DNA of 64,000 nt, taken from positions 144,355 to 208,354 of the forward strand of contig JAQTUX010000002.1 of NCBI GenBank assembly GCA_028707125.1, read 5' to 3'. The translations under genes and the position numbers were made by a program. Shown here in pieces: positions 1-47,626 of the stretch. The notes beneath the pieces were generated by a model. That model had not been told where the DNA came from, made no database searches, and saw only the letters and a list, made by a program, of their open reading frames with translations. Origin of the DNA: Candidatus Omnitrophota bacterium. GTDB taxonomy: Bacteria > Omnitrophota > Gorgyraeia > Gygaellales > JAQTUX01. The stretch's first letter is position 1; every line of letters starts with the position of its first letter.

Positions 1-1131
1 ATGCAGCCCATTGTCGCCCATATATTCCGCGTTGGGAAAATCTCCGATCTTGTGCCCGAGATGATCAAAGCCGGCGCACTGCGTGGGCATGGAAAGAAAA
101 AGATTGCGGCTGTCGATCCCGTGCTCCTCCAGATAACAGACCAGTTTATCCCTTTTAAACCCGGCGCCCTGTCTCAATATGATCGCAAAGGCGTGAGGGC
201 CTATCTGTTCATCAGGGCCCTCTTTAATAGTATAAAGCTCGGGCTCAAACTCCTTGAACCGCTTCATCATATACAGAAGATTTCCGCGCCTTTTTTTCAA
301 GATATCCTGGTATATTTCCATATTGCCTAAACCGATCGCCGCCTCCAGCTCATTCATTTTTGCCGAAAATCCAACGCGCTCGAATATGAAACGTATATCC
401 CTGTTGCCGCCCTGCTGAAAACGTTTCCGGCAATGGCCGGAGGCGGTATTCAACAGACAGCTCTCGCATTTACAGGCGCGCCCATGAGAGCGCAAAGACC
501 TCAGGATCTCCGCGAAATCATCCCTGTCGGTGGTGACCATCCCTCCCTCGGCAGTGGTGATCATATGCGCCACATAAAGGCTGAATGCCGCCATATCGCC
601 GAGCCTTCCTACCGGCTTGCCCTTATACACCGCCCCATATGCCTCAGCCGCGTCCTCAATGACAAATAATTTATGTTTTTTTGCTATGGAATTTATCGTA
701 TCCATATCAGCCGGCTTTCCCATAAGGTGAACCGGCATTATAGCCCTTGTTTTTCCGGTTATCGCGGATTCGATCTTTTCCGGTTCGATATTCAACGTAT
801 TCCTGCCGATATCAACAAATACAGGGGTAAATCCGGCCTGCAGTACCGCGTTACCCGTGGCAACAAAAGACAGCGCGGGAACTATGATCTCATCGCTTCT
901 CTTTGCCCCGAAATCGTATAAAACTGCCAACGCCAGGGCGTCCGCGTCCGTGCCGCTGCTTACCGCTACCGCTTCTTTTGTACCTATGAGCCCGGCAAAC
1001 CTCTTTTCCAATTCCCTCACATATTTGCCGCTTGAAACGCGGTTTGAATCAAGGATATCCCTTATTAGATCTTTTGATCTCCGGGTAATAGATATTGTGC
1101 CGAAGGCAACCCTCATTCTTTCTTTGATCAT
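1..1131 (-). CDS. DegT/DnrJ/EryC1/StrS-family PLP-dependent sugar aminotransferase. The C-terminus runs off the window edge, so the 3' end is partial.
   Basis: Not in the ORF track because there is no stop inside the window. The minus-strand frame starts with ATG at 1131 (MIKERMRVAFGTISITRR...). It has AAT-I-fold motifs, including ...IVPALSFVATGNAV... and DAAEAYGAVYKGKPVGRLGDMAAFSLY. It lies directly downstream of the FAD oxidoreductase on the same strand. Confidence 0.8.
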   Translation of the reverse strand, partial: MIKERMRVAFGTISITRRSKDLIRDILDSNRVSSGKYVRELEKRFAGLIGTKEAVAVSSGTDADALALAVLYDFGAKRSDEIIVPALSFVATGNAVLQAGFTPVFVDIGRNTLNIEPEKIESAITGKTRAIMPVHLMGKPADMDTINSIAKKHKLFVIEDAAEAYGAVYKGKPVGRLGDMAAFSLYVAHMITTAEGGMVTTDRDDFAEILRSLRSHGRACKCESCLLNTASGHCRKRFQQGGNRDIRFIFERVGFSAKMNELEAAIGLGNMEIYQDILKKRRGNLLYMMKRFKEFEPELYTIKEGPDEQIGPHAFAIILRQGAGFKRDKLVCYLEEHGIDSRNLFLSMPTQCAGFDHLGHKIGDFPNAEYMGDNGLH

Positions 1132-1133
1132 TT

Positions 1134-2267
1134 CTAACCTATCCTTTCAACAATATCTTCAACGTATTCAGCTATGGCAGGGGCAGCTGTCAGGCCCGGG
1201 GACTCTATGCCGATAAGATTGATAAGGCCGGGAAACCCGATCCGGCTCTCCTCCTGGATTACAAAATCACGGAATCCTTCGCCTTTACCTTGAAGTTTTG
1301 GCCGGATGCCCGCGGTGTCAGGAACTAAATCCTGCTCTTCTAAAAAAGGAAGCAACCCTGCCGCGGAATTTAAGAATTTTCCCTTCTCCGCGACATCAAC
1401 ATTGTAGTCAAACCTGTCTCTTTCAACGTAGCGGCTGTCAGGCCCTAACCGCAGGCCTCCCGCTAAATCCAATGTAGCATGGACGCCCAGTCCGCCGTTA
1501 TTCTCCGGCACAGGGTATATCAAACGATTAATTAATCCGCATTTCTGCGGGGAATTCACCCTGAAATACTGTCCCTTGCAATATTTCAATCTATAATCCC
1601 GGTCTTCTATATTGATCCCCGCCATCTTCGCTATATTATCTGATTCAAGGCCGGCGCTGTTGATCACGATCTTGGCGTGAAATTTAAAAGTATCTCCTGA
1701 AGAACCCTCTATGGCAACCTCATAACCGTCGGTTGACCTGCGCAGGCCGGCCACATTGGAATCATAAGCGATATCCCCCCTGTTATCTTTCAGCCGCTGA
1801 ACAAAATACTTCATTAAACTGTGCGAATCAATTATTCCCGTCGCAGGAGAGAATAATGCCGCCTCGGCTTTAATATTCGGCTCCATCCTCGCGATTTCGG
1901 TCTTTGTCAAGATCTTAAGCTCTCTGGCGCCGCTGGCGCCGCCTTGTTTTAAAAGCTCTTCCAACGCGCTCGTCTCTTTATCATTTACTGCTACGATCAG
2001 TTTTCCCGTCTGCCTGTAAGGGATCTTATTTTTTGCGCAGATCTCATAAAGCATTCTATTCCCCTCAACGCACGCCTTTGCCTTTAAAGAGCCGGGATCA
2101 TAATATATACCTCCGTGAATAACCTCGCTATTGCGGCTGCTTGTCTCCTGACCGAAAGACTTATGCCGTTCTAAAACGTAGACCGACCGATTTTGTTCAG
2201 AAACCTTTGCGGCTATACCTAAACCTACAACGCCCGCTCCGATAATAACTATACCTGCACGCTCCAT
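1134..2267 (-). CDS. FAD-dependent oxidoreductase of the DAO/L-2-hydroxyglutarate-oxidase type.
   Basis: 377 aa. The N-terminus has a dinucleotide-binding motif, VIIGAGVVGLGIAAK...VLER. It is tightly coupled to the neighbouring genes. Confidence 0.65.
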   Translation of the reverse strand: MERAGIVIIGAGVVGLGIAAKVSEQNRSVYVLERHKSFGQETSSRNSEVIHGGIYYDPGSLKAKACVEGNRMLYEICAKNKIPYRQTGKLIVAVNDKETSALEELLKQGGASGARELKILTKTEIARMEPNIKAEAALFSPATGIIDSHSLMKYFVQRLKDNRGDIAYDSNVAGLRRSTDGYEVAIEGSSGDTFKFHAKIVINSAGLESDNIAKMAGINIEDRDYRLKYCKGQYFRVNSPQKCGLINRLIYPVPENNGGLGVHATLDLAGGLRLGPDSRYVERDRFDYNVDVAEKGKFLNSAAGLLPFLEEQDLVPDTAGIRPKLQGKGEGFRDFVIQEESRIGFPGLINLIGIESPGLTAAPAIAEYVEDIVERIG

Positions 2268-3332
2268 CTATTCTGCCAGCTCCACCGCCGCATTCACGAC
2301 TTCCCGGACGCCGGGATAGAACTTACGCTCCAGGACGTATCCCGACGGGGTAGGGATATCAGGCGCGGCGATCCTTTTAACCGGCTTCTTTAGAAAATTC
2401 AGCCCCTTTTCAGATACCATCGCCGCGATCTCAGCTGTAACCCCTGCCGTCTTCCATCCGGTATCAACTATAATAAGCCTTCCTGTCTTCTTCAGAGAGG
2501 TCAATATAATATCCTCATCCAGAGGGTTCAACGTTCTTAAATCTATGACCTCCGCTTCAATACCCCTGGTTCTTAGCTCCTCTGCCGCGCGCAATGCTTC
2601 TATGACCATATAAGAAGCGCCTACGATCGTAACGTCGCCGCCCTCTTTTCTTATAACTCCCTTGCCGAAAGGTATGGCATATAATTTATCCGGAACGTAA
2701 CCCGTATGCTTAAACGCCCATCGGTGTTCGATGAACACTACCGGATCGTCATCAAGTACGCTTGACACCAATAGGCCCTTCGCGTCATAGGGGGTGCTGG
2801 GCATAACAAGCTTAAGCCCCGGCACATGCATAAATAATCCCTGGAGCGCCTGGGAATGCTGCGCCCCCGAGCCCCAGCCGCGGCCGATGACCGCCCATAT
2901 TACGATCGGGACATTGCTCCTGCCTCCGAACATATAACGCCACTTTGAGGCATGATTAACGATCTGATCCATCGCCAACAGAAGAAAGTCGGGCCGGTTG
3001 TGCATATAAATCGGGCGCATGCCTACAAGCGCCGCCCCTACCGCGACCCCTGTCAACGCGTCCTCTGACAAAGGCGTATCAAATATTCTCTGTGAGCCGT
3101 ATTTTTTATGCAGATTCAATGTCGCGCCGAACATGCCCGATGGGTCGTCCACCCCCTGCCCCATTATAAAAACACGGCTGTCTATGGCAAGTATCTGTTC
3201 AAGCGTCTCATAAATGGCCTGTGTATAAGGTATGTTCCTGGCCTCTGATTTACCGCTATGATCAAAGCCGGGCTCCTCTTTTTCTATACTCTTCTTGTCC
3301 CAGTCAAAACTTATTTTTGATCTATTCGCCAT
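2268..3332 (-). CDS. E1 beta-like subunit of a TPP-dependent enzyme (2-oxoacid dehydrogenase E1 beta / transketolase C-terminal family).
   Basis: It has the pyrimidine-binding and C-terminal transketolase-like domains. The ORF track extends it to 3395. I prefer the ATG at 3332 (MANRSK...) because it nearly removes the 74-nt overlap with the upstream gene, but the start is uncertain. Confidence 0.75.
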   Translation of the reverse strand: MANRSKISFDWDKKSIEKEEPGFDHSGKSEARNIPYTQAIYETLEQILAIDSRVFIMGQGVDDPSGMFGATLNLHKKYGSQRIFDTPLSEDALTGVAVGAALVGMRPIYMHNRPDFLLLAMDQIVNHASKWRYMFGGRSNVPIVIWAVIGRGWGSGAQHSQALQGLFMHVPGLKLVMPSTPYDAKGLLVSSVLDDDPVVFIEHRWAFKHTGYVPDKLYAIPFGKGVIRKEGGDVTIVGASYMVIEALRAAEELRTRGIEAEVIDLRTLNPLDEDIILTSLKKTGRLIIVDTGWKTAGVTAEIAAMVSEKGLNFLKKPVKRIAAPDIPTPSGYVLERKFYPGVREVVNAAVELAE

Positions 3333-4338
3333 CGCTATAAAGATATTTTGATACTTCCGCCTCATCGGGAAACGGGCTATTCCGGGCAAACTCAAATGCC
3401 TCGTCTATCTCTTTATCAAAGGCCTGATTAAAACAAGTGATATCTGATCCGCTTATTACCTGTCTATCCAGCAAGAAGAGCTCAAAATTTTTAAGCGGGC
3501 ACCTTTCCATCCAGGCGTCCAATTCTTCCTGTGTCCTGTACCCCAACTCTATATCGGTGCCGCCCCCCGAATGCCCGCACCATCTGTAAGTGCAAAATTC
3601 TATAAAAGAAGGCCCTTTACCGCGGCGCGCGTCCTCAACCGCCCTTCTGCCTACGCAGTAAACATCGACCACATTGTTGCCGTCCGCCTTGTAACGCGAA
3701 ATACCGAAGCCGTCAAAACGCTCATATATATCTTTGGAAGGCTGACGATTACTCCTGTGAGAGCATACCGCATAAAGATTATTCTCACAGACGTATATCA
3801 CAGGCAGTCTTTTAAGCATCGCGAAATTAATACTTTCATATAATACGCCCTCGTCAACCGCCCCATCGCCGAATAATACCATCGTCACCCGCTTATTTCC
3901 CTGCAACAAAGAACCGAGGGCGGCCCCTGTGGCAATAGGTATACCGCCGGCTACGATCGAAGAAGAACCCAGTAATCCCACTGAGTTATCGATCAAATGC
4001 ATTGAGCCGCCCCTGCCGCGGGAACAACCGGTTTCCCTGCCGTATAATTCGGCAATAAGCGATTTTAAGTCCCCGCCCTTAGCAAGATAATGGCCGTGCC
4101 CTCTGTAATTACTAAGAAGGTAATCCTCCTTATCCAGATGGGCGCACATACCGGCAGGTATTGCCTCCTGCCCCTTGCAGAGATGAACCGGCGTCTTCAT
4201 TTCGTCTTTGGGATACTCCTCTTCTATCCTGACCTGCACCTTTCTTATCCTCAACATCTGTTTATAAAGCCGGACCAAATGCTCCCGGGGGATATCCCCG
4301 ATATTCTTATCGTAATTGATCATGGGGCCTTTTTCCAT
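3322..4338 (-). CDS. E1 alpha subunit of a TPP-dependent dehydrogenase (pyruvate or acetoin dehydrogenase E1 alpha family).
   Basis: YRGHGH...GRGGSMHL and CENNLYA motifs are typical of E1 alpha. Its start overlaps the stop of the upstream B12 radical SAM gene (TAATG at 4336-4340). No E2 or E3 gene lies nearby. Confidence 0.8.
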   Translation of the reverse strand: MEKGPMINYDKNIGDIPREHLVRLYKQMLRIRKVQVRIEEEYPKDEMKTPVHLCKGQEAIPAGMCAHLDKEDYLLSNYRGHGHYLAKGGDLKSLIAELYGRETGCSRGRGGSMHLIDNSVGLLGSSSIVAGGIPIATGAALGSLLQGNKRVTMVLFGDGAVDEGVLYESINFAMLKRLPVIYVCENNLYAVCSHRSNRQPSKDIYERFDGFGISRYKADGNNVVDVYCVGRRAVEDARRGKGPSFIEFCTYRWCGHSGGGTDIELGYRTQEELDAWMERCPLKNFELFLLDRQVISGSDITCFNQAFDKEIDEAFEFARNSPFPDEAEVSKYLYSDGE

Positions 4339-5810
4339 TACGCGTATTTCCTGCGTATTGTTGTCCTTAACATATCTTTGATATGATCCACAACCTTCGA
4401 TCCGAACCTTTTCCGGATCATTTCTATATATGCCGGATCGCTGAAATATTCACGGAAGGCGCTGTCCCTGAAGCGCAGAACCTCCGCGGATGAAAGGTGC
4501 TTGGTCGCCAGCGCCAAAGTATCTTCCGCATACTGGCCATACGCATGCCATTGCCCCGGAAGCTCTCTGCCGTCTCTTACGGCATCCCTGTACAGGTCTG
4601 ACCCGGGATAGGCCATGGCTACATAAAAATTCACGTATTCAAAATTAAGCTCCTTTGACATATCCAGGGTCTTCCGCATGGATTCCAGAGTATCATCAGG
4701 CAGCCCGAATATAAAATTGCCGAGCGTATGAATACCCGCGCGCTTTGTCATATCAACGGCCTCTGATATTTTATCCTGGGATATCCTTTTTGCGACACCT
4801 TCACGGACACCGCCGCTCGCGGACTCAACGCCAAAGCAAAGCCAGTTGATCCCCGCCCGTTTCATCGCCGGCAGTATATCGCCGCTAACCGTATCAACGC
4901 GCGCGTATGCCCAGATATTGAGCCTGTACCCCCTTTGGATAATAAGCTCGCATATACGCGTAAGGCGCTCTTTCTTGATCACAAACAACTCATCAAGGAT
5001 CTTGATATTGCGCACATTATAATTTTTAACTAAAATATCTATCTCCTCTATTACCTTCTCCGGGCTGCGAAAACGAATGCCGCATTTACCATAGAAGGCA
5101 TGTATGGGACAATAGCTGCAATTAAACGGGCATCCCAAACTGGTGAAGATCACCGCATAGGGGCTTCTTTTGTCTAAATCCTCGAAGCAGTGCCAGTTAT
5201 GGGCCTTATACTTATGCATAGGTAAAAGATCCCAGGCGGCAAAAGGAAGGCGGTCAAGATCCTCGATCAAAGATGCGGGCGCGGGCGCTCTTACGCCGGT
5301 ATCATCCATATACCAAAGCCCTTCTATTCCGCAATCTTCCGGCCTTTTCCCGGATCTTAATGCCTCCAGGGTTTTAAGAAAGGTATAAAATCCCTCGCCC
5401 TGGCATACAAAATCTACCTTCTCCTCCCTGATGGTTTGTTCAGGAAGCGCGGAAGGATGAAGCCCGGAAAGGATCGTTTTCACAGCGCTACCCTTGCTAT
5501 GCAGGACGTTCAGGAGTTCGCTCACCGCGGTCATTTTAGGCGTGGAAGAAGCGGATGGATTGGTCCCCAAAACAACGATACCGGCCAAAAGCGGATTTAA
5601 CTCGGCGATCTTCTCTGCCGTGTATTCCGGGCTCCAGTTCTCCGCATCCGCGTCAATGATCCCTACAGAATATCCCTGCTCGCGGATGAACCCGGCGATC
5701 AACCCGCACCACAGAGGAGGTTCGATGCCGGCCAGAGACTCGCCTAATCTGCCGTACATCTGAGCGCGATTACCGGGGTTTACCAGCAATAGGTCTAACC
5801 GCTTATCCAC
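4338..5810 (-). CDS. Cobalamin-binding (class B) radical SAM enzyme, paralogue 1 of 7.
   Basis: 490 aa. The N-terminus is a Rossmann-like B12-binding domain (LLLVNPG...GIIDAD...IVVLGT). The radical SAM cluster motif is SLGCPFNCSYCP. Confidence 0.85.
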   Translation of the reverse strand: MDKRLDLLLVNPGNRAQMYGRLGESLAGIEPPLWCGLIAGFIREQGYSVGIIDADAENWSPEYTAEKIAELNPLLAGIVVLGTNPSASSTPKMTAVSELLNVLHSKGSAVKTILSGLHPSALPEQTIREEKVDFVCQGEGFYTFLKTLEALRSGKRPEDCGIEGLWYMDDTGVRAPAPASLIEDLDRLPFAAWDLLPMHKYKAHNWHCFEDLDKRSPYAVIFTSLGCPFNCSYCPIHAFYGKCGIRFRSPEKVIEEIDILVKNYNVRNIKILDELFVIKKERLTRICELIIQRGYRLNIWAYARVDTVSGDILPAMKRAGINWLCFGVESASGGVREGVAKRISQDKISEAVDMTKRAGIHTLGNFIFGLPDDTLESMRKTLDMSKELNFEYVNFYVAMAYPGSDLYRDAVRDGRELPGQWHAYGQYAEDTLALATKHLSSAEVLRFRDSAFREYFSDPAYIEMIRKRFGSKVVDHIKDMLRTTIRRKYA

Positions 5811-6526
5811 AAAGTCCTCCTCAGGATCTTCTCAGCCTGCTTAAGCCTTTCCGGAGTTCCGATATCTATAAAACCGCCCTCGGCCAAATACCCGTAAAAC
5901 TCCCTCTTCACCATAACCGGGAAAAAATCATTCTCCAAAGAAAAGTTCTTATCTTCCGGCATTTCAGACAATATCTCCTTGCGGAACAAATAAATGCCGC
6001 CGTTGACAAAACCATCGCCCTTAACGGATTTCTCGCTGAACGCGTTGATACGCTGCGACTCACCCAAAATTATACTGCCATAATCGCTGCTGTCTGATTC
6101 AGGCGAAACGACTATGGAACAGTACGCCTTCTTCCGGGTATGGAACTCTAAAAACTTGCCCAGATCTACGTCGCAGAAAGAATCTCCGTTCATAACCAGG
6201 AATATATCGCTTCCAATCTTTGAGGAGGCATTTTTGATACACCCCCCGGTGCCCATTAACGCCTTCTCCTCAGAGAATACAATATCATAATTGCCCTTTC
6301 CGCCCTTATAATATCGTTTAATAAATTCAGCCCCGTACCCTATACAGAGAATAAAACGCCTGAATCCAAAACGCGCGGCATAATCGATAAGAATATCCAG
6401 AAAAGGACGGCCGCCGATCTCTATCATCGGTTTAGGCAAATCCCCTGCAACCGGCCTGATGCGCCTGCCTTCTCCCCCGCAAAGTATTACCGCGTCTATA
6501 TCCTCAAATGCCGGCCTTTTGCTCAT
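5795..6526 (-). CDS. Sugar-1-phosphate nucleotidyltransferase, resembling the D-glycero-alpha-D-manno-heptose-1-P guanylyltransferase HddC.
   Basis: NTP_transferase N-terminus: AVILCGGEGRRIRPVAGDLPKPMIEIGGRPFLD. It sits next to a GHMP kinase. Confidence 0.6.
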   Translation of the reverse strand: MSKRPAFEDIDAVILCGGEGRRIRPVAGDLPKPMIEIGGRPFLDILIDYAARFGFRRFILCIGYGAEFIKRYYKGGKGNYDIVFSEEKALMGTGGCIKNASSKIGSDIFLVMNGDSFCDVDLGKFLEFHTRKKAYCSIVVSPESDSSDYGSIILGESQRINAFSEKSVKGDGFVNGGIYLFRKEILSEMPEDKNFSLENDFFPVMVKREFYGYLAEGGFIDIGTPERLKQAEKILRRTLWISG

Positions 6527-7527
6527 TATGTTGTCAATGAATCCCCCGGGCTGTAAAATATAATCTGGCTGCCTAAATTCTCAAACCTGAAAGGCACATG
6601 TAAAAGATCCTTTAAGCTCTCGCGGATCTTTGGCTGGGCATCAGGCCGGGCAAAAAACAAGATAAATCCTCCGCCGCCTGCGCCTAATACCTTTCCTCCC
6701 CGCGCGCCTGCCCTGATCGCCGCAGAGTAGATATCATCTATTAAGGGCGTGGCTATCTTGCTTGACAGGCTGCGTTTCAGCATCCAGTTTTCATGTAAAA
6801 GTTTCCCGAAATCCGATAAATCGGAGTTGCTGTTTAATATGCTCAAGGCCTTATCTACCAAGCCATACATGGCGCGCAGTTCTTTCTGCTTATGCGGCGT
6901 CTTCTCTATCTGCTCCCGGGCGATCTCTGATGCCGTGCGGGAAAACCCGGTAAAGAAAAGCATCAAATGGGACTGGAATACCCTGAGGCGCTCGACGTCT
7001 ATAGTCACAGGCCTGACCTGAATATGATCCTTGCCTCCGAATTCTATAAGGCTAAACCCCCCAAAGGCGGCTAACGCCTGATCCTGCGAACCGACGTTTT
7101 CCTTCATAACCTCCTGCTCAAGATGAATGGCATCCAATACCAGCTGCCGCTTAGTCGGCATGACGCCCTTAAGCGCGTAAAGCGCGTGAAGCAGGCCAAC
7201 GGTAAAGGCGGAACTCGACCCCATACCCGTGCGCGCGGGCAGATCGCCGTCGTGATGAACCTCCACCCCTTTATCTATGCCTATAAACTTCAGGCAGGCC
7301 CTGACGGAGGGATGCTGGATCTCATCGATCTCCTTTACGAATTCCATCCTGGAATATATTATCCTTGACTTATGTTCAAAGAAAGGAGGCAGATGCCTGC
7401 AGCTAAGATAGCAGTACTTATTTATCGTCGTAGCCAATACGGCTCCGCCGTTATCTCTATACCATACGGGATAGTCCGTACCCCCGCCAAAAAAAGAAAT
7501 GCGAAAAGGCGTTCGGCTGATAACCAT
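6526..7527 (-). CDS. GHMP-family sugar kinase, resembling the heptose 7-phosphate kinase HddA.
   Basis: The N-terminus (TPFRISFFGGGTDYP) and the GHMP motif (PARTGMGSSSAF), then GAGGGGF near the C-terminus. It shares one nucleotide with the downstream nucleotidyltransferase ORF. Confidence 0.6.
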   Translation of the reverse strand: MVISRTPFRISFFGGGTDYPVWYRDNGGAVLATTINKYCYLSCRHLPPFFEHKSRIIYSRMEFVKEIDEIQHPSVRACLKFIGIDKGVEVHHDGDLPARTGMGSSSAFTVGLLHALYALKGVMPTKRQLVLDAIHLEQEVMKENVGSQDQALAAFGGFSLIEFGGKDHIQVRPVTIDVERLRVFQSHLMLFFTGFSRTASEIAREQIEKTPHKQKELRAMYGLVDKALSILNSNSDLSDFGKLLHENWMLKRSLSSKIATPLIDDIYSAAIRAGARGGKVLGAGGGGFILFFARPDAQPKIRESLKDLLHVPFRFENLGSQIIFYSPGDSLTT

Positions 7528-7535
7528 ATCTCTCC

Positions 7536-8468
7536 TTAAACGTTGGAAAACTGATTTCTTCTTACGACCTGGTATCCTTTGATCAATTCTGAAATACCTT
7601 CTGGGAGCGAAATATCGGGTTTATATCCTGTGCCTTTGATCTTTCCGTTGCTTACGATATAATCCCTCTTGTCGGGATCCTCGCCTACCTCTGCCTCGGT
7701 AAAATAAAAATCGGGCGCCTGTTTCTTGATCTCCTCGCACAACTCCCGCTTGCTAAGGTTGGCATTGCTTAAACCCACATTATATGTTTGATTTTTCATC
7801 CGTTCAAAATTATTCAAACAGTGGATGAATGCCTTGGCAACATCCCGCACGTGAATATAGTTTCTTTTAAAATGCGCCTCAAAAATAACCAGAAACCTGT
7901 CCGTTACCGCGCGATAAGTAAAATCATTCACCAAGAGGTCCAGCCGCATGCGGGGACTGACGCCGAATGCCGTAGCCAGCCTCAAAGTGATGCTGTTGCC
8001 CGCGTCCAATATGGCCTTCTCCGCCTCAACCTTCAAATTACCGTAAAGGGAAACCGGACGTAAGGGCGTCTCTTCGGTACAGAAGATGCCCTTTTCTCCC
8101 ACCCCATATCCGCTGTTAGTGGTAGGGTAAATAACAATCTGCTCCCTGCTGCGCAAACCCAGTATTGTCTTCACCGCATCCACGATAATCGTCCTGGCCT
8201 CGATAGGGCGCATCTTACAGAGCGGGGCGCCGGTCAGGCAGGCCAGGGGAAAGACGGCATCCGCCCCCTTTAGATGACGAGATATCAAATCCCTGTCTCG
8301 CGCATCGCCCCTGATTATGGCCAGATTACCGTAATGGCAGCAATCCAACAGAGGGCTCTGATTATACATGAAATTGTCAATAACCGTCACTTCAAAATCA
8401 TTGGCCAATAATTGCGGGACCAATACAGAACCTATATAACCCGCTCCTCCAGTTACCAATATCTTCAT
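7536..8468 (-). CDS. NAD-dependent epimerase/dehydratase (extended SDR).
   Basis: MKILVTGGAGYIGS and a YxxxK motif. I moved the start to the ATG at 8468, which follows a GGGAGG RBS. The ORF track extends it to 8495. Confidence 0.75.
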   Translation of the reverse strand: MKILVTGGAGYIGSVLVPQLLANDFEVTVIDNFMYNQSPLLDCCHYGNLAIIRGDARDRDLISRHLKGADAVFPLACLTGAPLCKMRPIEARTIIVDAVKTILGLRSREQIVIYPTTNSGYGVGEKGIFCTEETPLRPVSLYGNLKVEAEKAILDAGNSITLRLATAFGVSPRMRLDLLVNDFTYRAVTDRFLVIFEAHFKRNYIHVRDVAKAFIHCLNNFERMKNQTYNVGLSNANLSKRELCEEIKKQAPDFYFTEAEVGEDPDKRDYIVSNGKIKGTGYKPDISLPEGISELIKGYQVVRRNQFSNV

Positions 8469-8481
8469 GGTCTTCCTCCCA

Positions 8482-9186
8482 TTAACGCCAAACAAATACC
8501 TCCTTTAAAACCTGAGTCAAATAAGCCGAGCCCCAGCGCACTATCTGTAATTTTCGCTTACCCCATAACCTGCGCGGCTCATCAGCAGGAATCTCGGTAA
8601 TCCTTAATTTTCTCTTTGCGGCCCTAACCGAAAGAAGAGGCATAATACATATCTTTGTATGAAACAATGCCTCCTCCCGGGAATAATTTTCATCCCTGTC
8701 AAGCTCTAAGTCGCGTATCAACTCCTTTTTAAAAGCGCGGAACATATTCATCGCGTCTGTATACTTGCCTCCGTGAAGCACGTTAATCAAAGAGGTGAAC
8801 ATCCAATTACCGAACGAAGTTATTAAACTGTCATCGTAGCTCCTGGCATCTTTTAAATATCGGGAGGCGATCACCATATCATATCCTTCCTCCATTTTCT
8901 TAACCAGCTGGGGTATGACCTCGGGTTTGCAATTACCGTCCGGACTGAATGGAATGATCACATCCCCTGTTATGCGGCCCAACGCCTCAATGTAGGCGTT
9001 CCTTATACCGGGTTTTTTCTGGACGATAACTGAATAACCGTTCTTCATGGCGTATTCAGCGGTTCCGTCGGTGGATCTTCCATCCACCACGAAAATCTCA
9101 TCCACCCATTCCCTTTTAATCTGCGGCATGATCTGCTTCATGCCGTCTATCTCATTCAAGGTCAATACAAGTAAGGTTGTCTTCAT
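8482..9186 (-). CDS. Family-2 glycosyltransferase, Dpm1/polyprenol-phosphate sugar synthase-like, soluble form.
   Basis: 234 aa. N-terminal GT-A motifs: LLVLTLNE, VVDGRSTDGT. No C-terminal transmembrane segments. Confidence 0.65.
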   Translation of the reverse strand: MKTTLLVLTLNEIDGMKQIMPQIKREWVDEIFVVDGRSTDGTAEYAMKNGYSVIVQKKPGIRNAYIEALGRITGDVIIPFSPDGNCKPEVIPQLVKKMEEGYDMVIASRYLKDARSYDDSLITSFGNWMFTSLINVLHGGKYTDAMNMFRAFKKELIRDLELDRDENYSREEALFHTKICIMPLLSVRAAKRKLRITEIPADEPRRLWGKRKLQIVRWGSAYLTQVLKEVFVWR

Positions 9187-10729
9187 TAAAACTCCTCCGG
9201 TCTGATTTATAAAAGATCTTGTTTCTCAGGTACTTAATAATCGCCAGATCGCCGAAGAACGTGTAGTATTTATTCTTCAGCCTGAATCTGTAATAACGGC
9301 TTATCGGCACATAGGCGATCTTCAACACAGCCCTTAAGAAGGCGTTCCTGATAGAATTGATGACATTAGGCACGGCATTGGCGAGGATGCTCATATAGGA
9401 TATATTTCCCAGCCGTATCCTGTCCTTACGATCAAACCAGGGATTCTTTCTGCCTTCCAGATCATAATCATCGTAAATCCAGTCGATCCACCCCTCCAGC
9501 TGCCGGGGCGCCTTGAGGCCGTTTTTAAGCGCCGACTCATACATTGGCGTCGCCGGCAGGGCCGTATAAATGGCCATGGTCTCAAACAGGGCGTTGGGAT
9601 TATCCCTTTTGAGGCGGAAAGAAAGGTCTATGGTCTTATCGATATCTTCAAATGTTTCACCGGGAAAACCGATCATTAACGCAAAGGCGGGAGTGATCCC
9701 CGCGGCCTTTGCCTTGAGATTGGCCCTGATCGTATCTTCTACCTTTATGCCCTTATTGGAAAGCTCCAGCACCCTGTCTGAACCGGACTCGGCGCCGAAT
9801 TTCAGAACATAGGCGCCGCTCTTTTTTAGAAGCGCCGTCTGCTCATCGCTGGCCTTATTAAAAACATCTACCCGGGTTCCGGATGTATACCAATGGATCT
9901 TCAGGTCATTCCGGATGATCCCTTCGCATATCCTCTGGGCCCTTTCCCGATTGATGTAGAACTCATCGTCCCTTATCCAGATGCCGCTGAGCCCGAATCT
10001 CTTCACCGTATCTACGATGATCCCGAGGCTCTTTTCAACAGACATATCGCGCCATTTCCTCTTTCGCAAACTTGCGCTGCTGCAAAAGCCGCAGTTAAAC
10101 GGGCACCCCCTGCTGGTCTGGCCTATGTCAAGGGTCCTTAAACTTTCCTTTAAATACATATCGGGATGTATGTACTTTTCCACGTCGATCAATCCCCATG
10201 GGACAGGCAATAATCCCTCAACGTCAATCAATGCCCGATCCGGGTTTCTTACGGCCCTGCCGCCGTCCTTGTAGGCAATGCCTTCTATCCCGGAAAGCGA
10301 GCCGCCTGAGGCCAGCGCCCCTACTAACTCCCGGAAGGTAACATCGCCTTCGCCAACGCAGACTATATCCACGTATTCGCTCATCAGGGTTTGCTCCGGC
10401 AGTATAGACGGATGCGGCCCGCCCCAGACTATCGGGACCTTGCCGCCCGCGGCCCTTCGCACGACCTTTGCCGCTTCAATCGCAAAGTGGATCTGCGTGC
10501 CTGTCATTGAAGAGATGCCTACGCATACGGGGCCGGACTTCAATGCCTCGGTTAAATTGCGGCCCCAATCCTTATCCACCCGCTGGTCTATTATACTGAC
10601 CTTATAACCGCCCTTCTGAAGCGGCGCGGCTATGGTTAAAAGAGAATGCGGCACGGCAACGGTTGAGCCGAAATCCATCCCTGTCTTGGGATAAACAAGG
10701 ACTACATCTGCGGCTTTATTTTCCTGCAT
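9152..10729 (-). CDS. Cobalamin-binding (class B) radical SAM enzyme, paralogue 2 of 7.
   Basis: 525 aa. B12-binding N-terminus (VVLVYPKTG...IIDQR...VWGGPHPS) and radical SAM motif TSRGCPFNCGFCS. Confidence 0.85.
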   Translation of the reverse strand: MQENKAADVVLVYPKTGMDFGSTVAVPHSLLTIAAPLQKGGYKVSIIDQRVDKDWGRNLTEALKSGPVCVGISSMTGTQIHFAIEAAKVVRRAAGGKVPIVWGGPHPSILPEQTLMSEYVDIVCVGEGDVTFRELVGALASGGSLSGIEGIAYKDGGRAVRNPDRALIDVEGLLPVPWGLIDVEKYIHPDMYLKESLRTLDIGQTSRGCPFNCGFCSSASLRKRKWRDMSVEKSLGIIVDTVKRFGLSGIWIRDDEFYINRERAQRICEGIIRNDLKIHWYTSGTRVDVFNKASDEQTALLKKSGAYVLKFGAESGSDRVLELSNKGIKVEDTIRANLKAKAAGITPAFALMIGFPGETFEDIDKTIDLSFRLKRDNPNALFETMAIYTALPATPMYESALKNGLKAPRQLEGWIDWIYDDYDLEGRKNPWFDRKDRIRLGNISYMSILANAVPNVINSIRNAFLRAVLKIAYVPISRYYRFRLKNKYYTFFGDLAIIKYLRNKIFYKSDRRSFNEDNLTCIDLE

Positions 10730-10736
10730 AGCTCTC

Positions 10737-12095
10737 CTAAAGAATAAAGGCCAGATTATTCCTGACCCAGCTCAGAATCGGGACGGCCATCACATAGAAT
10801 AAAAGGTTCAACGCCATAATAACGCCTATTATTGCCAATGACAGGTATTTATTTTTGAACTTGCCCCAGATAGTAAATATACCCAGGCTGGCGAATATTA
10901 TCAAATATGGCTCCAGAGGGTAACGATGCCTGGTGTCGCCTGAAAAGATCATAACCATAAAACTGGCATACAAAAATGATAACAGCAGTAATGCGGTGTT
11001 TACGTTCAACCCGGGCCTCACGGCTTTGATTATGCCGACTATACCGAACATAAGAATAATTGAATACCAGATATTATATATCCTCTGCATACCGTTATTA
11101 TAATGCGTCTGAAATACATCCCATAGGCACAATACTTTCTTAAGCAGCAATTTCGGCATGCGCTTATAATCAGCGGCTATAAATTTAATGGCGGTATTCT
11201 TATAGAATTTATCCTGCTCCACTTCGTTCATCCGGCTGATCTGCTTCATTTCTTCATTCGTAAATATCCGGCTGAAATCGCCGAAGGAGCTCCCCTTTGC
11301 ATAAGGGTTATTGCTGTTAAGCAGGGCGCCTCCGCCCATTGTGGAAAAAGGGACGAGCGCCCTGTGCACAAGATAATTTCTAAATGCCCATGGCGAAATA
11401 GTCAGCGTGAAAACAGCGCACATAACCAATATCCCTCTTAACGCGAGCTTAAGCGGATAACGGTATATCAACAATCCGGACAAAAATAGAGGGAAAAAGG
11501 CATTAAACGGCCTTGTTAAGGCAAGCAGGCCCAGAAAAACCCCGGATATAACCGCTCCTTTCATCTTAAGATTTACGAAGAAACCGCTTATCAGGAATAA
11601 TACAAATAAACCATACAAAATGTTGAACAGATTCTCCGAATACAGGAATCCCGGGCCGCCATAAAAGGCATAAGATATATACGGCTGATAAAAGGCAAGT
11701 ATAAGTGCCGACAATAGCCCTATGCGTTCATCAAAGATCTTCCGGCCGATATAATAGATAATAACGCACAATAAAGCGCCCATAATGCTCTGAATGACCC
11801 TTACCGCGACATAATTATGGCCAAAGGCCCGATAGATAGATGCCAGAAACAAGGGATATAAAGGGGTGCGCAAAGATGTCGGCCCCTTTTCCGGATCCAT
11901 GGAATAACCATTGCCTGACGCTAAATTGACGGCTATAGTGTCGTAATCCAGCGCATCAGCTCCCGGTTTTTGCAGGTATCGCGGCAGATTCAAAACAGCC
12001 GCTATGCGCAAAGATAAGGCGGCAACGAAAATTAACAACAAAAGCCGCTTCCTATATCTTGTCCAATTTGAGAATACTGAATTTACCATCATCAT
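10737..12095 (-). CDS. GT-C membrane glycosyltransferase, ArnT/PMT (GT39/GT83-like, PMT_2) family.
   Basis: 452 aa with about 11 predicted transmembrane segments. First-loop signature: ADALDYDTIAVNLASGNGYS...RTPLYPLFLASIY. Confidence 0.6.
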   Translation of the reverse strand: MMMVNSVFSNWTRYRKRLLLLIFVAALSLRIAAVLNLPRYLQKPGADALDYDTIAVNLASGNGYSMDPEKGPTSLRTPLYPLFLASIYRAFGHNYVAVRVIQSIMGALLCVIIYYIGRKIFDERIGLLSALILAFYQPYISYAFYGGPGFLYSENLFNILYGLFVLFLISGFFVNLKMKGAVISGVFLGLLALTRPFNAFFPLFLSGLLIYRYPLKLALRGILVMCAVFTLTISPWAFRNYLVHRALVPFSTMGGGALLNSNNPYAKGSSFGDFSRIFTNEEMKQISRMNEVEQDKFYKNTAIKFIAADYKRMPKLLLKKVLCLWDVFQTHYNNGMQRIYNIWYSIILMFGIVGIIKAVRPGLNVNTALLLLSFLYASFMVMIFSGDTRHRYPLEPYLIIFASLGIFTIWGKFKNKYLSLAIIGVIMALNLLFYVMAVPILSWVRNNLAFIL

Positions 12096-13806
12096 AAACT
12101 TCTGATATCCCTATGTTATTTCTTAAAACAGATTCTTCAACCCTGGATTTTCTTTCCTCATTTCTTACCAGGATGTGATTAAGACGGTATTTACTTAATT
12201 TATCTGCCAGATACTTTCCGTTCAGAAACAGCTTAGATTTTCCCTTGAGATAATCGATATATTCCTGATCTATGCCTCTGCCCCCATATTCTTTGATAGC
12301 GCCCATACAAACAAAATGCGCCCCGTTACCATGTCGGATAAATTCCTCGGCATCTCTGCTGTCATAACCAAACAGCGATAAAGCGATAAAATATCTGTCC
12401 TCCAGTTCTTCTTTAGATCTTATGGTCCCGATAAATAACGGTAGGAATATAAAATTATTTGTATAAAGGAGTATATCGCCTGGTGTCGGGTCTGCCTGCT
12501 TCAATTCATTGAAGGGATCAACAAGCACGACATCATCTTGGCCGGCATGCTCCTTTAGCCAGGAAAACGGCGCTGATAAGGATTGTCTCTGCGCGTATCT
12601 CGCCTTATACACATGATAATAGTGGGTCTGTTGGCTAAGCGCGGATACAGCCATAAGAACCAATATCACTCTAAATGACAATTCCTGCAATAACCTGCTG
12701 CTAACTATCCCTGCCGGCAGCCTCAGGCCGTTTAAGGATGAGAACAGCGCGATTATCAAGAATGTCTTATTGCTGTAACCGAGCCAGTGCCCGGGGAATA
12801 AAGTCATCCCGGAAATCAAATGCTGGTTCGAACAGATCAATCCTCCAGCCAGGAAAGAAACAATGAAAGCAAATCGGATGCTCCTTTTTTCTCTGTAGAA
12901 TGACATGATAAGCAATGTCGGAATTAAATAGAAAGCCGGCAATATCAGTTTGCGGGAATACACAACATCGTTAAAATATCGCAAGGCATCGTAATGAGGA
13001 TGATGCATAACCTGCCGTAAATTCAGCCAGTAAGGAATCGATATTATAAACGATACCGCGATTATCAGCATCATTCTTCGTAACAAAGCGTATTCCTTCT
13101 TTAGTGCGAGCAATATCATTAACACAAACAGGCCGGCATAAATAAACGTCCAATAATATATAAACGCGTAAAATAACGACCCTACCGCAGCTGCGGCAGC
13201 CCACGGGATGAGGCGGCCTCGTGAATAAAGCGCCTTATATACCAAAAGAAGGGATAAAATAAGCATAACATGATTAAACTGCGGGGAAACCGGCCTTAAA
13301 AACCACAATGGTTCAGCATATTTCAAGGTTAATAACTCTTTTAGTATCCATATTTTCCCCGTAAAGAAGCGATAGGCCAGCAATATACCGGCTGAACCCA
13401 GAATGCCAAGGTTCTGCGAACCGCAAAGTTCAAATATGAGACGGTAAATTAACAAAAACAGGACCGCGGGCAAAATAAAGCTCAACAAAATGTCCACCCG
13501 GACAACAGAGAGGCCCAAAACCCTGCCCACAACCCCTGAGAAGGCCTCCGGGAGAAAGCCGAATGTCCATGGCTGCCGGACGTGTTCATAGTTGTCAAAG
13601 CCGGAAAGCGTAGGATTACCTCCTTTATAAAAGGCGTTTACCCTGCCTAAATATTTGTCTTCATCAGAGGTCGTGGTTAAAGAGATACCGCGGTAATCAT
13701 CGCCCAGCTCATAACGGAACCGCATATCCGGATATATGTATATGCACCCGATCACGGCCGCAAGCGCAAGCAATAATACAATCTTCCGCAGTCCTTTACC
13801 CGGCAT
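12052..13806 (-). CDS. Integral membrane protein of unknown function, possibly a GT-C-like glycosyltransferase or a polymerase.
   Basis: 584 aa. It has an N-terminal signal or transmembrane segment, then about 10 hydrophobic helices, then a ~150-aa soluble C-terminal domain. It lies between two ArnT-like genes. Confidence 0.4.
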   Translation of the reverse strand: MPGKGLRKIVLLLALAAVIGCIYIYPDMRFRYELGDDYRGISLTTTSDEDKYLGRVNAFYKGGNPTLSGFDNYEHVRQPWTFGFLPEAFSGVVGRVLGLSVVRVDILLSFILPAVLFLLIYRLIFELCGSQNLGILGSAGILLAYRFFTGKIWILKELLTLKYAEPLWFLRPVSPQFNHVMLILSLLLVYKALYSRGRLIPWAAAAAVGSLFYAFIYYWTFIYAGLFVLMILLALKKEYALLRRMMLIIAVSFIISIPYWLNLRQVMHHPHYDALRYFNDVVYSRKLILPAFYLIPTLLIMSFYREKRSIRFAFIVSFLAGGLICSNQHLISGMTLFPGHWLGYSNKTFLIIALFSSLNGLRLPAGIVSSRLLQELSFRVILVLMAVSALSQQTHYYHVYKARYAQRQSLSAPFSWLKEHAGQDDVVLVDPFNELKQADPTPGDILLYTNNFIFLPLFIGTIRSKEELEDRYFIALSLFGYDSRDAEEFIRHGNGAHFVCMGAIKEYGGRGIDQEYIDYLKGKSKLFLNGKYLADKLSKYRLNHILVRNEERKSRVEESVLRNNIGISEVYDDGKFSILKLDKI

Positions 13807-13815
13807 ATCTATCGA

Positions 13816-15111
13816 TCACCATAAATGAATCTTTTCCATAAATGACCTTGCGAATATCTTCGCCTGATAAGAGTTAAAATATATGAAAAGATTCAGAAGA
13901 AGATACGACCCCGTCAACAGGACACCGTAAATCCTCCTGGAAAACCTTAAAACAAAATAGTAGATTCCCGCCGAAGCGATAATAATGATATACGGCTCCA
14001 CCGGCAGGCGGAACCTGGGAGAGCCGTACATGATCAATGTGATGAAAACGGCGTAGATTACAGGCAGATACACGGGCAGCAGTTCCTTGAGCCTCCTGCG
14101 CGTGATAAATATACCATAGATAAAAAACGGCATTATAAAAACGTACATAAAATTATATATCCCGTATCCGATGATCTCCCAGTCAAACGGAGACCAGAAA
14201 AATCCGAGCTTTAACAGCTCCAGCTTAAGTACCTTCAGCGGATTGCGCCTGATATATTTCAACGCCTCCCTTGCCAGAAAGTCGCTTCGTTCTGCTTCGG
14301 AATCCAACAGGTCGGCCTTTTTAGTCGTATCGTCCTTAGGGTGCAGCCCGAATAATTTACCGTTCTGCGGAACATATGAGCCGTATAGGCCCATGCCCGT
14401 CTTATTGGTGATCAATGTAAATCTATGATGCAGCTGAGAATTCCTTATTATCCAGGGCAATATCGGCAGCAGGAAAAAGGCCACAAAAATAAGTACCCCT
14501 GCCAAAATTTGCCTGATATTATACCATTTGGGGAACATCGCCCTGCCTGATAACGATAAAATAAACAGGGGGAATAAAACCAGCATATCGCGGACCATAA
14601 CAGCAAGCCCTAATACTATGCCAAGGACGACTAGATTCCTGAAAGTATGTTTCCGAAGCTGCCTTAGCAAAAGAAACATCGCTATAACGAGCAGAAAAGT
14701 AAAAAGATTTTCATTTCTCAGGTACTGCGAAATCTTGACAAACCCCGGGTTGAAACAGGCGATCAAGGCGCTTATCAGGGCAACCCTTGTATTAAAGATA
14801 TCCTTTGATATTAAGAATATTACGGCGCAGACCACTGCCCCTGATAATATCTGGATAATTATCAACGCGGAATAATTATGGTTAAATGAATAAAGCACCG
14901 AGGCGATAAAGAACGGGTAAAGCGGCGGATGGCATGAGGTTGCCTGCCCGTTGATCGAATAGCCCCGCCCATCAAGGACATTCTGCGCCAATTCCCCATA
15001 CCCCTCCACGTCGCCCGGCGTTATATGTAAAACGGGGAGAAGCAAAATCAACCTTACCAAGAACGCGCCGACGATGATCACGAATATAAGCCTTGCGTCT
15101 TTCATGGTCAT
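13816..15111 (-). CDS. GT-C membrane glycosyltransferase, ArnT/PMT_2-like; paralogue of the gene at 10737-12095.
   Basis: 431 aa, multi-pass membrane protein. Loop signature: GDVEGYGELAQNVLDGRGYS...HPPLYPFFIASVLY. Confidence 0.6.
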   Translation of the reverse strand: MTMKDARLIFVIIVGAFLVRLILLLPVLHITPGDVEGYGELAQNVLDGRGYSINGQATSCHPPLYPFFIASVLYSFNHNYSALIIIQILSGAVVCAVIFLISKDIFNTRVALISALIACFNPGFVKISQYLRNENLFTFLLVIAMFLLLRQLRKHTFRNLVVLGIVLGLAVMVRDMLVLFPLFILSLSGRAMFPKWYNIRQILAGVLIFVAFFLLPILPWIIRNSQLHHRFTLITNKTGMGLYGSYVPQNGKLFGLHPKDDTTKKADLLDSEAERSDFLAREALKYIRRNPLKVLKLELLKLGFFWSPFDWEIIGYGIYNFMYVFIMPFFIYGIFITRRRLKELLPVYLPVIYAVFITLIMYGSPRFRLPVEPYIIIIASAGIYYFVLRFSRRIYGVLLTGSYLLLNLFIYFNSYQAKIFARSFMEKIHLW

Positions 15112-43118: not shown

Positions 43119-43119
43119 A

Positions 43120-44581: not shown

Positions 44582-44583
44582 AT

Positions 44584-47622: not shown

Positions 47623-47626
47623 ATCC

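Follow-up and report, generated by a model that had tools for sequence, protein, structure and literature searches.

A predicted sugar-branching thiamine diphosphate carboligase in a GDP-heptose cassette of an Omnitrophota surface-glycan locus

Sugar-branching enzymes dependent on thiamine diphosphate (ThDP) have been described in two settings, YerE-like enzymes in lipopolysaccharide, and aKADH2 enzymes together with split transketolases in actinomycete antibiotics and secondary metabolites (PMC12247030). YerE transfers a pyruvate-derived two-carbon (C2) unit onto CDP-3,6-dideoxy-4-keto-glucose, the product of the dehydrase named E1 (PMC9306805). The aKADH2 enzymes, which are of the E1 alpha/beta type (E1ab), are held responsible for the C2 branches of avilamycin, paulomycin, aldgamycin, kosinostatin and kibdelomycin; they include AviB1/B2, Pau11/12, the aldgamycin pyruvate dehydrogenase (PDH) alpha/beta pair and KbDH-a/b, which couples pyruvate to ketones in vitro (PMC4753412, PMC12247030). 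A third ThDP class put forward for sugar branching is that of the split transketolases (PMC12247030). We analyse here an E1 alpha/E1 beta gene pair carried by a stretch of 64,000 nucleotides from a Candidatus Omnitrophota bacterium (assembly GCA_028707125.1, contig JAQTUX010000002.1, positions 144,355 to 208,354). This whole stretch is hereafter called the window, and its reading was extended by 10 kb past the window start (gene-wise downstream) with L001, a Logan contig that carries an identical E1 alpha. An earlier reading of the sequence alone had likened the pair to AviB1/AviB2 and YerE, and both precedents are indeed documented (PMC4753412, PMC9306805, PMC12247030).

On balance, we consider it probable that the pair is an E2-independent ThDP carboligase, adding a pyruvate-derived C2 branch to GDP-4-keto-3-deoxy-heptose. 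The minus strand holds every large open reading frame (ORF) of the window. The pair and its neighbours are listed below with their window coordinates; the first five genes all match Pfam families, with E-values of 1e-16 to 1e-93.

1-1131, minus strand: predicted DegT-family 3-dehydrase, 377 of its 404 amino acids (aa) inside the window, the rest read on the source contig
1134-2267, minus strand: flavin adenine dinucleotide (FAD) oxidoreductase of the DAO family (Pfam DAO, 5.8e-63)
2268-3332, minus strand: E1 beta-like subunit, 354 aa from ATG 3332 (Pfam Transket_pyr and Transketolase_C)
3322-4338, minus strand: E1 alpha-like ThDP subunit, 338 aa, putative donor-activating half of the carboligase (Pfam E1_dh, 1.5e-64)
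4338-5810, minus strand: B12-binding radical S-adenosylmethionine (SAM) enzyme #1, 490 aa (Pfam B12-binding and Radical_SAM)
5795-6526, minus strand: HddC-like sugar-1-phosphate nucleotidyltransferase (NTP transferase), GDP-heptose forming (NCBIfam HddC, 1.2e-43)
6526-7527, minus strand: HddA-like GHMP kinase, heptose-7-phosphate 1-kinase (NCBIfam HddA, 1.8e-37)
7536-8468, minus strand: short-chain dehydrogenase/reductase 1 (SDR1), Cj1427-like C4-dehydrogenase, 310 aa (58% identity to PDB 6VO6/6VO8)
8482-9186, minus strand: family 2 glycosyltransferase (GT2), polyprenyl-phosphate glycosyltransferase-like (Pfam Glycos_transf_2; NCBIfam AglJ and Dol-P-hexose transferase-like)
9152-10729, minus strand: B12-binding radical SAM enzyme #2, second tailoring enzyme, 525 aa (Pfam domains)
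10737-15111, minus strand: two PMT_2 (GT-C) membrane glycosyltransferases (Pfam PMT_2 and PMT) flanking a Pfam-less protein with about nine transmembrane (TM) helices

The pair is a genuine E1 alpha/beta pair, as first read: in addition to the Pfam E1_dh, Transket_pyr and Transketolase_C domains, the YRGHGH and GGSMH motifs are present. E1 alpha matches human PDH E1 alpha (1NI4) with an E-value of 2e-53 and, when aligned to it, keeps the ThDP/Mg motif GDG...ENN (FGDGAVDEG...VCENNLY), the PVHLC histidine and the HGHS-loop histidine. E1 beta matches the Bacillus stearothermophilus E1 beta (3DUF/1W85; E-value 1.7e-74), and the ThDP-activating Glu59 (DTPLSE) and His128 (AQHS) are both kept. The active site is thus not degenerate: ThDP/Mg motif, Glu59-beta and active-site histidines are all intact. 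Degenerate TPP-binding residues, named beforehand as an outcome that would overturn the carboligase idea, are therefore not what is found. The pair shares fold, domain order, ThDP/Mg motif and catalytic Glu and His with the heterotetrameric PDH and acetoin E1 enzymes (1NI4; 1W85/3DUF; AcoA/AcoB), but it differs from them in having no cognate E2/E3 within 74 kb, in scoring below the family cutoffs and in forming part of a separate clade. E1 alpha reaches 319 bits against NCBIfam PDH_E1_alph_y (cutoff 394), and E1 beta 318.7 bits against PRK09212 (cutoff 321).

The N-terminal extension of E1 beta, also remarked upon from the sequence alone, is real with any start and places about 30 aa before the canonical chain start. 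The maximal ORF is 2268-3395, with alternative starts at 3365 and 3395, and at least 30 residues stand ahead of residue 5/6 of 1W85_B/3DUF_B whichever of the three starts is taken. ATG 3332 is favoured because homologous E1 betas begin M(A)KISFDWD, M(A)KISFDWDKKSIEKEEPGFEH. The extension, of about 30 aa, carries the motif KISFDWDKKSIEKEE, which is found only in the subclade formed by L001-L005, L007, L088 and L089 (L numbers designate the loci compared here). It is conserved in the Omnitrophota loci L002, L004, L088 and L089, weaker in the Chloroflexota-type loci L005 and L007, and absent from the other sugar-linked and canonical E1 betas compared.

Pfam scans found no Biotin_lipoyl, 2-oxoacid_dh, E3_binding or Pyr_redox_dim domain in the large ORFs of the 64-kb window, nor in the 10 kb beyond its start (L001). 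Local jackhmmer searches of 86 loci, using as queries Pfam-verified E2 and E3 proteins of Virgibacillus, Paenibacillus and Streptomyces loci, gave no match in the window or in L001-L025. As a positive control, the same searches detected an E2 gene at most 10 kb from the pair in about 40 loci, mostly just downstream of E1 beta; the single Streptomyces locus of the genome scan, L077, is a canonical E2-linked E1 beside sorbitol phosphotransferase system genes. The lack of a lipoyl-E2 or E3 gene nearby, which the sequence-only reading had pointed out, thus extends over the 64-kb window and 10 kb outside its start. In a neighbour-joining tree of 84 E1 alphas, 26 sugar-linked, E2-less sequences are split from 40 E2-linked ones in 100/100 bootstraps. 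Since this bipartition holds in every replicate, the E2-less state belongs to a clade and is no accident of this locus. Catalytically intact, devoid of a nearby E2 and placed in a sugar-locus clade, the pair does not look like a conventional 2-oxoacid dehydrogenase, in agreement with the initial view.

Metagenomes are rich in E1 alpha homologues of 58-84% identity, several of which carry an Omnitrophota or Chloroflexota annotation. Gene order across phyla was obtained from a scan of species-representative genomes and from local profile searches. A recurring set is observed, made of E1 alpha, E1 beta, SDR1, the GHMP kinase, a second short-chain dehydrogenase/reductase (SDR2), at least one B12 radical SAM gene, a small GT2 and PMT_2, often with an NTP transferase and usually with a DegT-like gene. 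Its core of E1 alpha, E1 beta, SDR1, the GHMP kinase and SDR2, usually with a His-type DegT gene, occurs in Omnitrophota (L004, L087, L088, L089), Chloroflexota (L005), Gammaproteobacteria (L024), Deltaproteobacteria (L058) and Lentisphaerales (L027). In L024 and L058, the order is GHMP kinase, SDR2, E1 alpha, E1 beta, DegT and, further on, SDR1, and a shorter form is found in L027, a metagenome-assembled genome. Set by conservation, the module reaches upstream to the HddC-, HddA- and Cj1427-like genes (5795-8468) and downstream, outside the window, to an Fcl/Cj1428-like reductase (SDR2).

The sequence-only reading had instead delimited a five-gene sub-pathway by its stop/start overlaps. The junctions themselves are as described: radical SAM #1 and E1 alpha overlap by 1 nucleotide (nt; TAATG), E1 alpha and E1 beta by 11 nt (with ATG 3332 as the start), the TAG of E1 beta is directly followed by the ATG of the FAD gene (0-nt gap), and 2 nt separate the FAD gene from the DegT-family gene. 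However, packing is equally tight throughout the window, which is 99% coding, with 33 of its 58 junctions overlapping, 16 more of at most 15 nt and a median of -4 nt. Because the whole locus is packed alike, overlap does not delimit such a sub-pathway, and translational coupling was rejected as its boundary.

The ThDP enzyme of the cassette can be of another kind. The place of E1ab is taken in L093/L094 by a split transketolase, in an otherwise equivalent cassette that also has SDR2, SDR1, a 490-aa B12 radical SAM, the GHMP kinase, the NTP transferase, the FAD enzyme and an Fe-S dehydrase 73% identical to that of the window. Both kinds of ThDP enzyme, split transketolase and E1ab, are carried by L002/L003. 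Transketolases also move a C2 unit onto a carbonyl.

L093:1974-3769 and L002:1-1582: split transketolase, with an N-terminal half of 276-286 aa and a C-terminal half of 303-313 aa

The genes next to the pair point to a GDP-heptose. Over the full length, SDR1 is 58% identical to PDB 6VO6/6VO8, which it matches with 414 bits. The 6VO6 sequence is from Campylobacter jejuni, where its gene lies between a Cj1428-type reductase gene and HddA, GmhA and HddC, next to kpsC, in the HS:2 heptose cluster. Gene neighbourhood, C. jejuni origin and PDB title, together with the PDB code, which we take to be that of the Cj1427 entry, identify it as Cj1427, the GDP-heptose C4-dehydrogenase. Cj1427 works by a ping-pong mechanism, its tightly bound NADH being re-oxidised by alpha-ketoglutarate, which yields L-2-hydroxyglutarate, and with a C3-dehydratase it produces GDP-D-glycero-3-deoxy-4-keto-heptose in vitro (m/z 616.08; PMC10680097). 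By analogy, SDR1 is proposed to make the 4-keto sugar in the window system and would likewise convert alpha-ketoglutarate to L-2-hydroxyglutarate. The window NTP transferase is 35% identical to C. jejuni HddC and the GHMP kinase 27% identical to HddA, with kinase orthologues scoring 208-605 bits in other cassettes. SDR2, just outside the window on L001, has a GDP-fucose synthase fold (295 bits to 1E6U) and 37.5% identity to the Cj1428-type reductase. No cupin C3/C5 epimerase is present in the window system.

Heptose genes also stand by E1ab cassettes elsewhere, the HddA-like gene adjoining GmhA in L024 and a GmhB-like phosphatase gene in L058. In P0045, a metagenomic protein encoded on a 1.8-kb contig, an E1 alpha 62% identical to that of the window is joined to a GmhB-like heptose-1,7-bisphosphate phosphatase domain, and this domain fusion links the heptose pathway to the ThDP enzyme. 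With its Cj1427 orthologue and its HddC-, HddA- and Cj1428/Fcl-like enzymes, the locus thus resembles the capsular GDP-heptose system of C. jejuni, in which a 3-dehydratase acting on a 4-keto heptose is also known (the HS:5 C3-dehydratase; PMC10680097). That system differs, however, in having neither a ThDP enzyme nor a B12 radical SAM, and its 3-dehydratase is of the ColD type, dependent on pyridoxal phosphate and glutamate and without Fe-S cysteines.

The DegT-family gene had been taken for an aminotransferase gene, a label that can no longer be kept. Among solved structures, its product aligns over its full length only with the Yersinia pseudotuberculosis E1 dehydrase (3BCX/3BB8) and with ColD (2GMS), while aminotransferase structures align only to about residue 218 and break at an insert. 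Where perosamine synthetase has its catalytic Lys (GNKIITT), the window protein has His189 (VAHMITT; window 567-565), and the E1 dehydrase has His220 at the corresponding position (PAHHIT). The Fe-S ligands of the E1 dehydrase, Cys251, Cys253 and Cys261 (GRDCYCAPGCDNTCKKRF), align with Cys220, Cys222 and Cys235 (GRACKCESCLLNTASGHCRKRF) once a 4-residue insertion is allowed for, the spacing being C-x-C-x12-C in the window dehydrase and C-x-C-x7-C in the Yersinia enzyme. The Schiff-base Lys is kept in the three other DegT genes of the window. Although the protein scores 247 bits against the NCBIfam RfbH model, under the cutoff of 423, we assign it from these alignments as a pyridoxamine phosphate (PMP)-dependent, Fe-S-type NDP-4-keto-sugar 3-dehydrase of the E1/RfbH/AscC/DdhC type. 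Because it is a His-for-Lys Fe-S 3-dehydrase, the sugar is predicted to be 3-deoxygenated and not aminated; of the branched, or branched and aminated, sugar put forward earlier, C2 branching is the best reading and amination is dropped.

His likewise replaces Lys in the DegT protein encoded beside E1ab in L002-L004, L005, L024, L027, L058 and L089, as well as in the L093 dehydrase. Of these proteins, those of L002-L004, L089 and L093 have the Fe-S cysteines, whereas those of L005, L024, L027 and L058 lack them and are ColD-like. Another arrangement exists among E2-less loci: in L009, L022, L032 and L057, E1ab is followed by one or two Lys-containing DegT aminotransferases, not by a His-type dehydrase. 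These gene sets suggest that the clade includes other sugar chemistries as well, which may yield aminated branches like that of kibdelomycin.

The predicted route is reminiscent of yersiniose A biosynthesis (AscC/DdhC with E3, YerE and YerF), with a 4-keto sugar, a His-for-Lys Fe-S/PMP 3-deoxygenation, a ThDP-dependent C2 addition at C4 and a reduction (PMC9306805). Unlike E1ab, YerE is a single-chain flavoprotein of the acetohydroxyacid-synthase/decarboxylase superfamily, and the Yersinia sugar is a CDP-linked 6-deoxyhexose. In the window system, the Cj1427 orthologue would oxidise C4, turning alpha-ketoglutarate into L-2-hydroxyglutarate, which the FAD enzyme, similar to L-2-hydroxyglutarate dehydrogenase (L2HGDH), may re-oxidise here. 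Removal of the 3-hydroxyl by the Fe-S/PMP 3-dehydrase would then give GDP-3-deoxy-4-keto-heptose. E1ab would decarboxylate pyruvate to hydroxyethylidene-ThDP and add it to the C4 ketone, yielding a 4-C-acetyl tertiary alcohol, which the Fcl/Cj1428-like reductase and the B12 radical SAM enzyme(s) could tailor, for example by ketoreduction to a 1-hydroxyethyl group or by C-methylation. The GT2 and PMT_2 enzymes would finally pass the sugar via a polyprenyl-phosphate carrier to a surface glycan. The surrounding genes would plausibly supply a keto-sugar acceptor of the right kind, and the work on Cj1427 and the C3-dehydratase makes it chemically plausible (PMC10680097).

Like the aKADH2 enzymes, the pair is an E1 alpha/beta pair without nearby E2/E3, set among nucleotide-sugar tailoring genes that would make a ring ketone, and for both a pyruvate C2 addition to the ring ketone is proposed, giving a tertiary alcohol, with reduction or methylation to follow. 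Unlike them, it is found in cell-surface glycan loci of uncultivated phyla of the Gram-negative type and not in secondary-metabolite clusters, and its predicted scaffold is a GDP-heptose and not a dTDP-deoxyhexose. It is moreover tied to a Cj1427-type dehydrogenase, an Fe-S 3-dehydrase and B12 radical SAMs, and its E1 beta bears a clade-specific extension. These comparisons suggest, as a new element, that both the E1ab and the transketolase branching types have a place in surface-glycan loci, on a GDP-heptose scaffold.

The FAD oxidoreductase had been counted as a coupled member of the module, a role that its distribution does not bear out. None of the other E1ab cassettes whose two flanks were read (L002-L005, L024, L058, L088, L089) contains it, and it stands again beside an Fe-S dehydrase only in L093/L094. 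Close homologues lie elsewhere, in housekeeping contexts (L096-L098) or in other glycan contexts (L091, L099). Missing from other E1ab cassettes and with homologues in unrelated contexts, it was rejected as a core cassette partner. In L091/L092:7001-8143, a homologue 63% identical is found between YfhO/PMT_2 (GT-C) genes and a GT2 gene, and no E1ab or Cj1427-like gene occurs within 7 kb of it. The FAD family is thus recurrently tied to lipid-linked glycan machinery in Omnitrophota.

The best-scoring NCBIfam model for the FAD enzyme is LhgO (242 bits, under the cutoff of 299), and its PDB matches are 3DME (of unknown function; 259 bits), 8W75 (named FI05204p, presumably Drosophila L2HGDH; 167 bits) and GlpO (103 bits). 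Because the Cj1427-type step yields L-2-hydroxyglutarate, the simplest role for the enzyme would be that of an optional, L-2-hydroxyglutarate dehydrogenase-like accessory, recycling L-2-hydroxyglutarate to alpha-ketoglutarate. Such recycling is a suggested reason for the presence of a gene of this kind in a glycan locus. That it serves as the E3-type reductase of the Fe-S dehydrase is only a minor possibility, since its fold class is not the right one and since L002-L004 and L089 carry the Fe-S dehydrase but no such FAD gene.

Radical SAM #1 keeps its position in most Omnitrophota and Chloroflexota cassettes. Its CxxxCxxC motif is GCPFNCSYC, its nearest NCBIfam matches, BchE and HpnJ, are far under their cutoffs, its orthologues in L004 and L005 score 741-796 bits, and radical SAM genes of 469-490 aa occupy the same position in L087, L088, L089 and L093. 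It is predicted to be a conserved tailoring enzyme of the cassette, with C-methylation or C-C bond formation as candidate reactions. Radical SAM #2 has orthologues of 671-770 bits in L002, L004 and L008. The GT2 gene, conserved beside the cassette in L004, L024 and L087, probably encodes the exit step onto a lipid carrier, and the PMT_2 pair, whose counterparts adjoin the cassette in L004 and L087, probably acts in the periplasmic transfer of the lipid-linked sugar.

One product would bring these activities together. Caryose is a 4,8-cyclo-3,9-dideoxy-nonose whose biosynthesis is described as unknown (PMC9092360). Such a gene set would explain its nine carbons, seven from the heptose and two from pyruvate, its deoxy positions, 3-deoxy via the 3-dehydrase and 9-deoxy via the pyruvate methyl, and the retention of its 6-hydroxyl, since a C4-dehydrogenase and not a 4,6-dehydratase is used. 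After C-acetylation of GDP-3-deoxy-4-keto-D-glycero-heptose at C4 by E1ab, radical SAM #1 would have to remove a hydrogen at C7 and form a C7-C8 bond to the acetyl carbonyl, which we regard as a long shot. BchE and HpnJ, its nearest named relatives, are ring-forming enzymes; our data neither support nor exclude a ring-closing step. The corresponding product, a caryose-like carbocyclic 4,8-cyclo-3,9-dideoxy-nonose with a cyclopentane fused to the sugar, is to be seen as equally improbable.

Several points weigh against the branching of a GDP-4-keto-3-deoxy-heptose by E1ab. The donor, the acceptor, the step order and every product are read from gene context. The likeness to aKADH2 lies in gene set-up and proposed reaction, not in a sequence comparison with AviB1, AlmDI, Pau11 or KbDH. 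True E1s are believed to use certain histidines for lipoyl reductive acylation, and the pair retains these; its sequence, taken alone, would be compatible with lipoyl chemistry. At the 80% level, only two weak clade-signature columns emerge in E1 alpha, residue 105 (Cys/Tyr) and residue 115 (Leu/Ile). As for the neighbours, one cassette, L088, is without a His-type dehydrase, and 3-deoxygenation is therefore not obligatory. No AscD-type E3 reductase (FNR or Fer2-type gene) for the Fe-S dehydrase occurs within 74 kb, and neither GmhA nor GmhB is encoded beside the cassette in the window.

The retained histidines, along with all other catalytic residues, would fit a pair that is simply the E1 of a conventional pyruvate, acetoin or branched-chain 2-oxoacid dehydrogenase, with its E2/E3 encoded elsewhere and its siting in a glycan locus due to chance. 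The top family matches are PDH E1 alpha and beta, and the E2/E3 search covered 74 kb of the genome. We nevertheless hold this to be very improbable, since both subunits fall under the NCBIfam cutoffs, no E2/E3 is found within those 74 kb, all E2-linked relatives are split off in 100/100 bootstraps, the pair lies within this sugar cassette in several phyla and a GmhB-E1 alpha fusion exists. That fusion can also be read otherwise, as can the constancy of the HddA-like kinase, the pair's most constant neighbour, and the transketolase that replaces E1ab in L093 and accompanies it in L002/L003. The ThDP enzyme could act at the sugar-phosphate stage, in the manner of DXS or transketolase, joining a C2 unit from pyruvate or hydroxypyruvate to an aldose phosphate, and the resulting, unusual heptulose or octulose phosphate would then be activated by the HddA/HddC-like enzymes; a 2-oxoacid might come from the FAD enzyme and a distant D-2-hydroxyacid dehydrogenase. 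With pyruvate as the donor, however, a 1-deoxy-ketose would be formed, for which neither a GmhA-type ketose-aldose isomerisation nor an anomeric phosphorylation is possible. The cassette, moreover, always includes the Cj1427 orthologue and usually the 3-dehydrase, which would create the known type of acceptor for ThDP branching, and all characterised E2-less E1ab enzymes act on keto-sugars (PMC12247030). Action at the sugar-phosphate stage is thus unlikely, although it deserves consideration.

The donor, finally, could be other than pyruvate, alpha-ketoglutarate or an aldolase-derived 4-hydroxy-2-oxoacid giving a longer branch, or the enzyme could merely decarboxylate a 2-oxo-sugar acid. Alpha-ketoglutarate is already the co-substrate of the neighbouring Cj1427-type enzyme, and an HpcH/HpaI aldolase (36234-36998) and a D-2-hydroxyacid dehydrogenase (28186-29094) are encoded in the window. 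Aldolases of the HpcH/HpaI kind make 4-hydroxy-2-oxoacid donors for the YerE-like ErwE, and both ErwE and MygE, also YerE-like, use longer donors (PMC9306805). We find such chemistry quite unlikely here, as the aldolase lies 31 kb away, both genes (25-31 kb from E1ab) are outside the conserved cassette, and the known branching enzymes of the E1ab type appear limited to pyruvate C2 units (PMC12247030).

Beyond the cassette, the entire window is one same-strand glycan super-locus of about 60 genes, and an Rfam scan of it gave no matches. Seven B12-binding radical SAM genes are found (4338-5810, 9152-10729, 16085-17473, 17445-18980, 24578-26047, 31782-33308 and 53901-55439), with one plain radical SAM gene (39416-40315), and this density of B12 radical SAMs is unusual for a polysaccharide locus. 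Four Pfam-less proteins of 569-584 aa (12052-13806, 29107-30843, 50219-51931 and 56396-58105), three of them with about 6-9 predicted TM helices and none with similarity to another detectable by blastp, may be unrecognised polymerases or GT-C-like transferases. A winged-helix HTH_24 regulator gene (53081-53704) lies between the two longest true intergenic spacers of the window, of 49 nt and 196 nt, and this region may mark an operon boundary within the super-locus. A nonulosonic acid gene set, of the pseudaminic or legionaminic type, occupies 41590-50222; the stretch 47623-48063, considered as a 442-nt non-coding gap, is filled by a small ORF.

41590-43118, minus strand: HisH/HisF-like pair
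43847-44632, minus strand: CMP-transferase-like gene
45500-46495, minus strand: PseB-like dehydratase
46492-47622, minus strand: DegT protein with Lys
about 47640-48050: small ORF, by eye a hexapeptide-repeat acetyltransferase
48064-49209, minus strand: UDP-GlcNAc 2-epimerase
49206-50222, minus strand: NeuB

All these comparisons suggest that the E2-less E1ab enzymes form a distinct and widespread clade in surface-glycan loci of Omnitrophota, Chloroflexota, Proteobacteria, Lentisphaerae and other phyla, and that at least one subgroup of this clade is connected with the GDP-heptose pathway described in Campylobacter. If E1ab does branch a heptose, E1ab found with a Cj1427-like SDR, an HddA-like kinase and a His-type DegT protein would denote a sugar-branching cassette and not a pyruvate dehydrogenase, a rule by which many automatic "pyruvate/acetoin dehydrogenase E1" and "aminotransferase" labels would be corrected. 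The clade would also provide new carboligases with nucleotide-sugar acceptors for biocatalysis. Uncultivated bacteria would then carry on their surface a new class of nine-carbon, C-branched, heptose-derived sugars, possibly methylated or cyclised.

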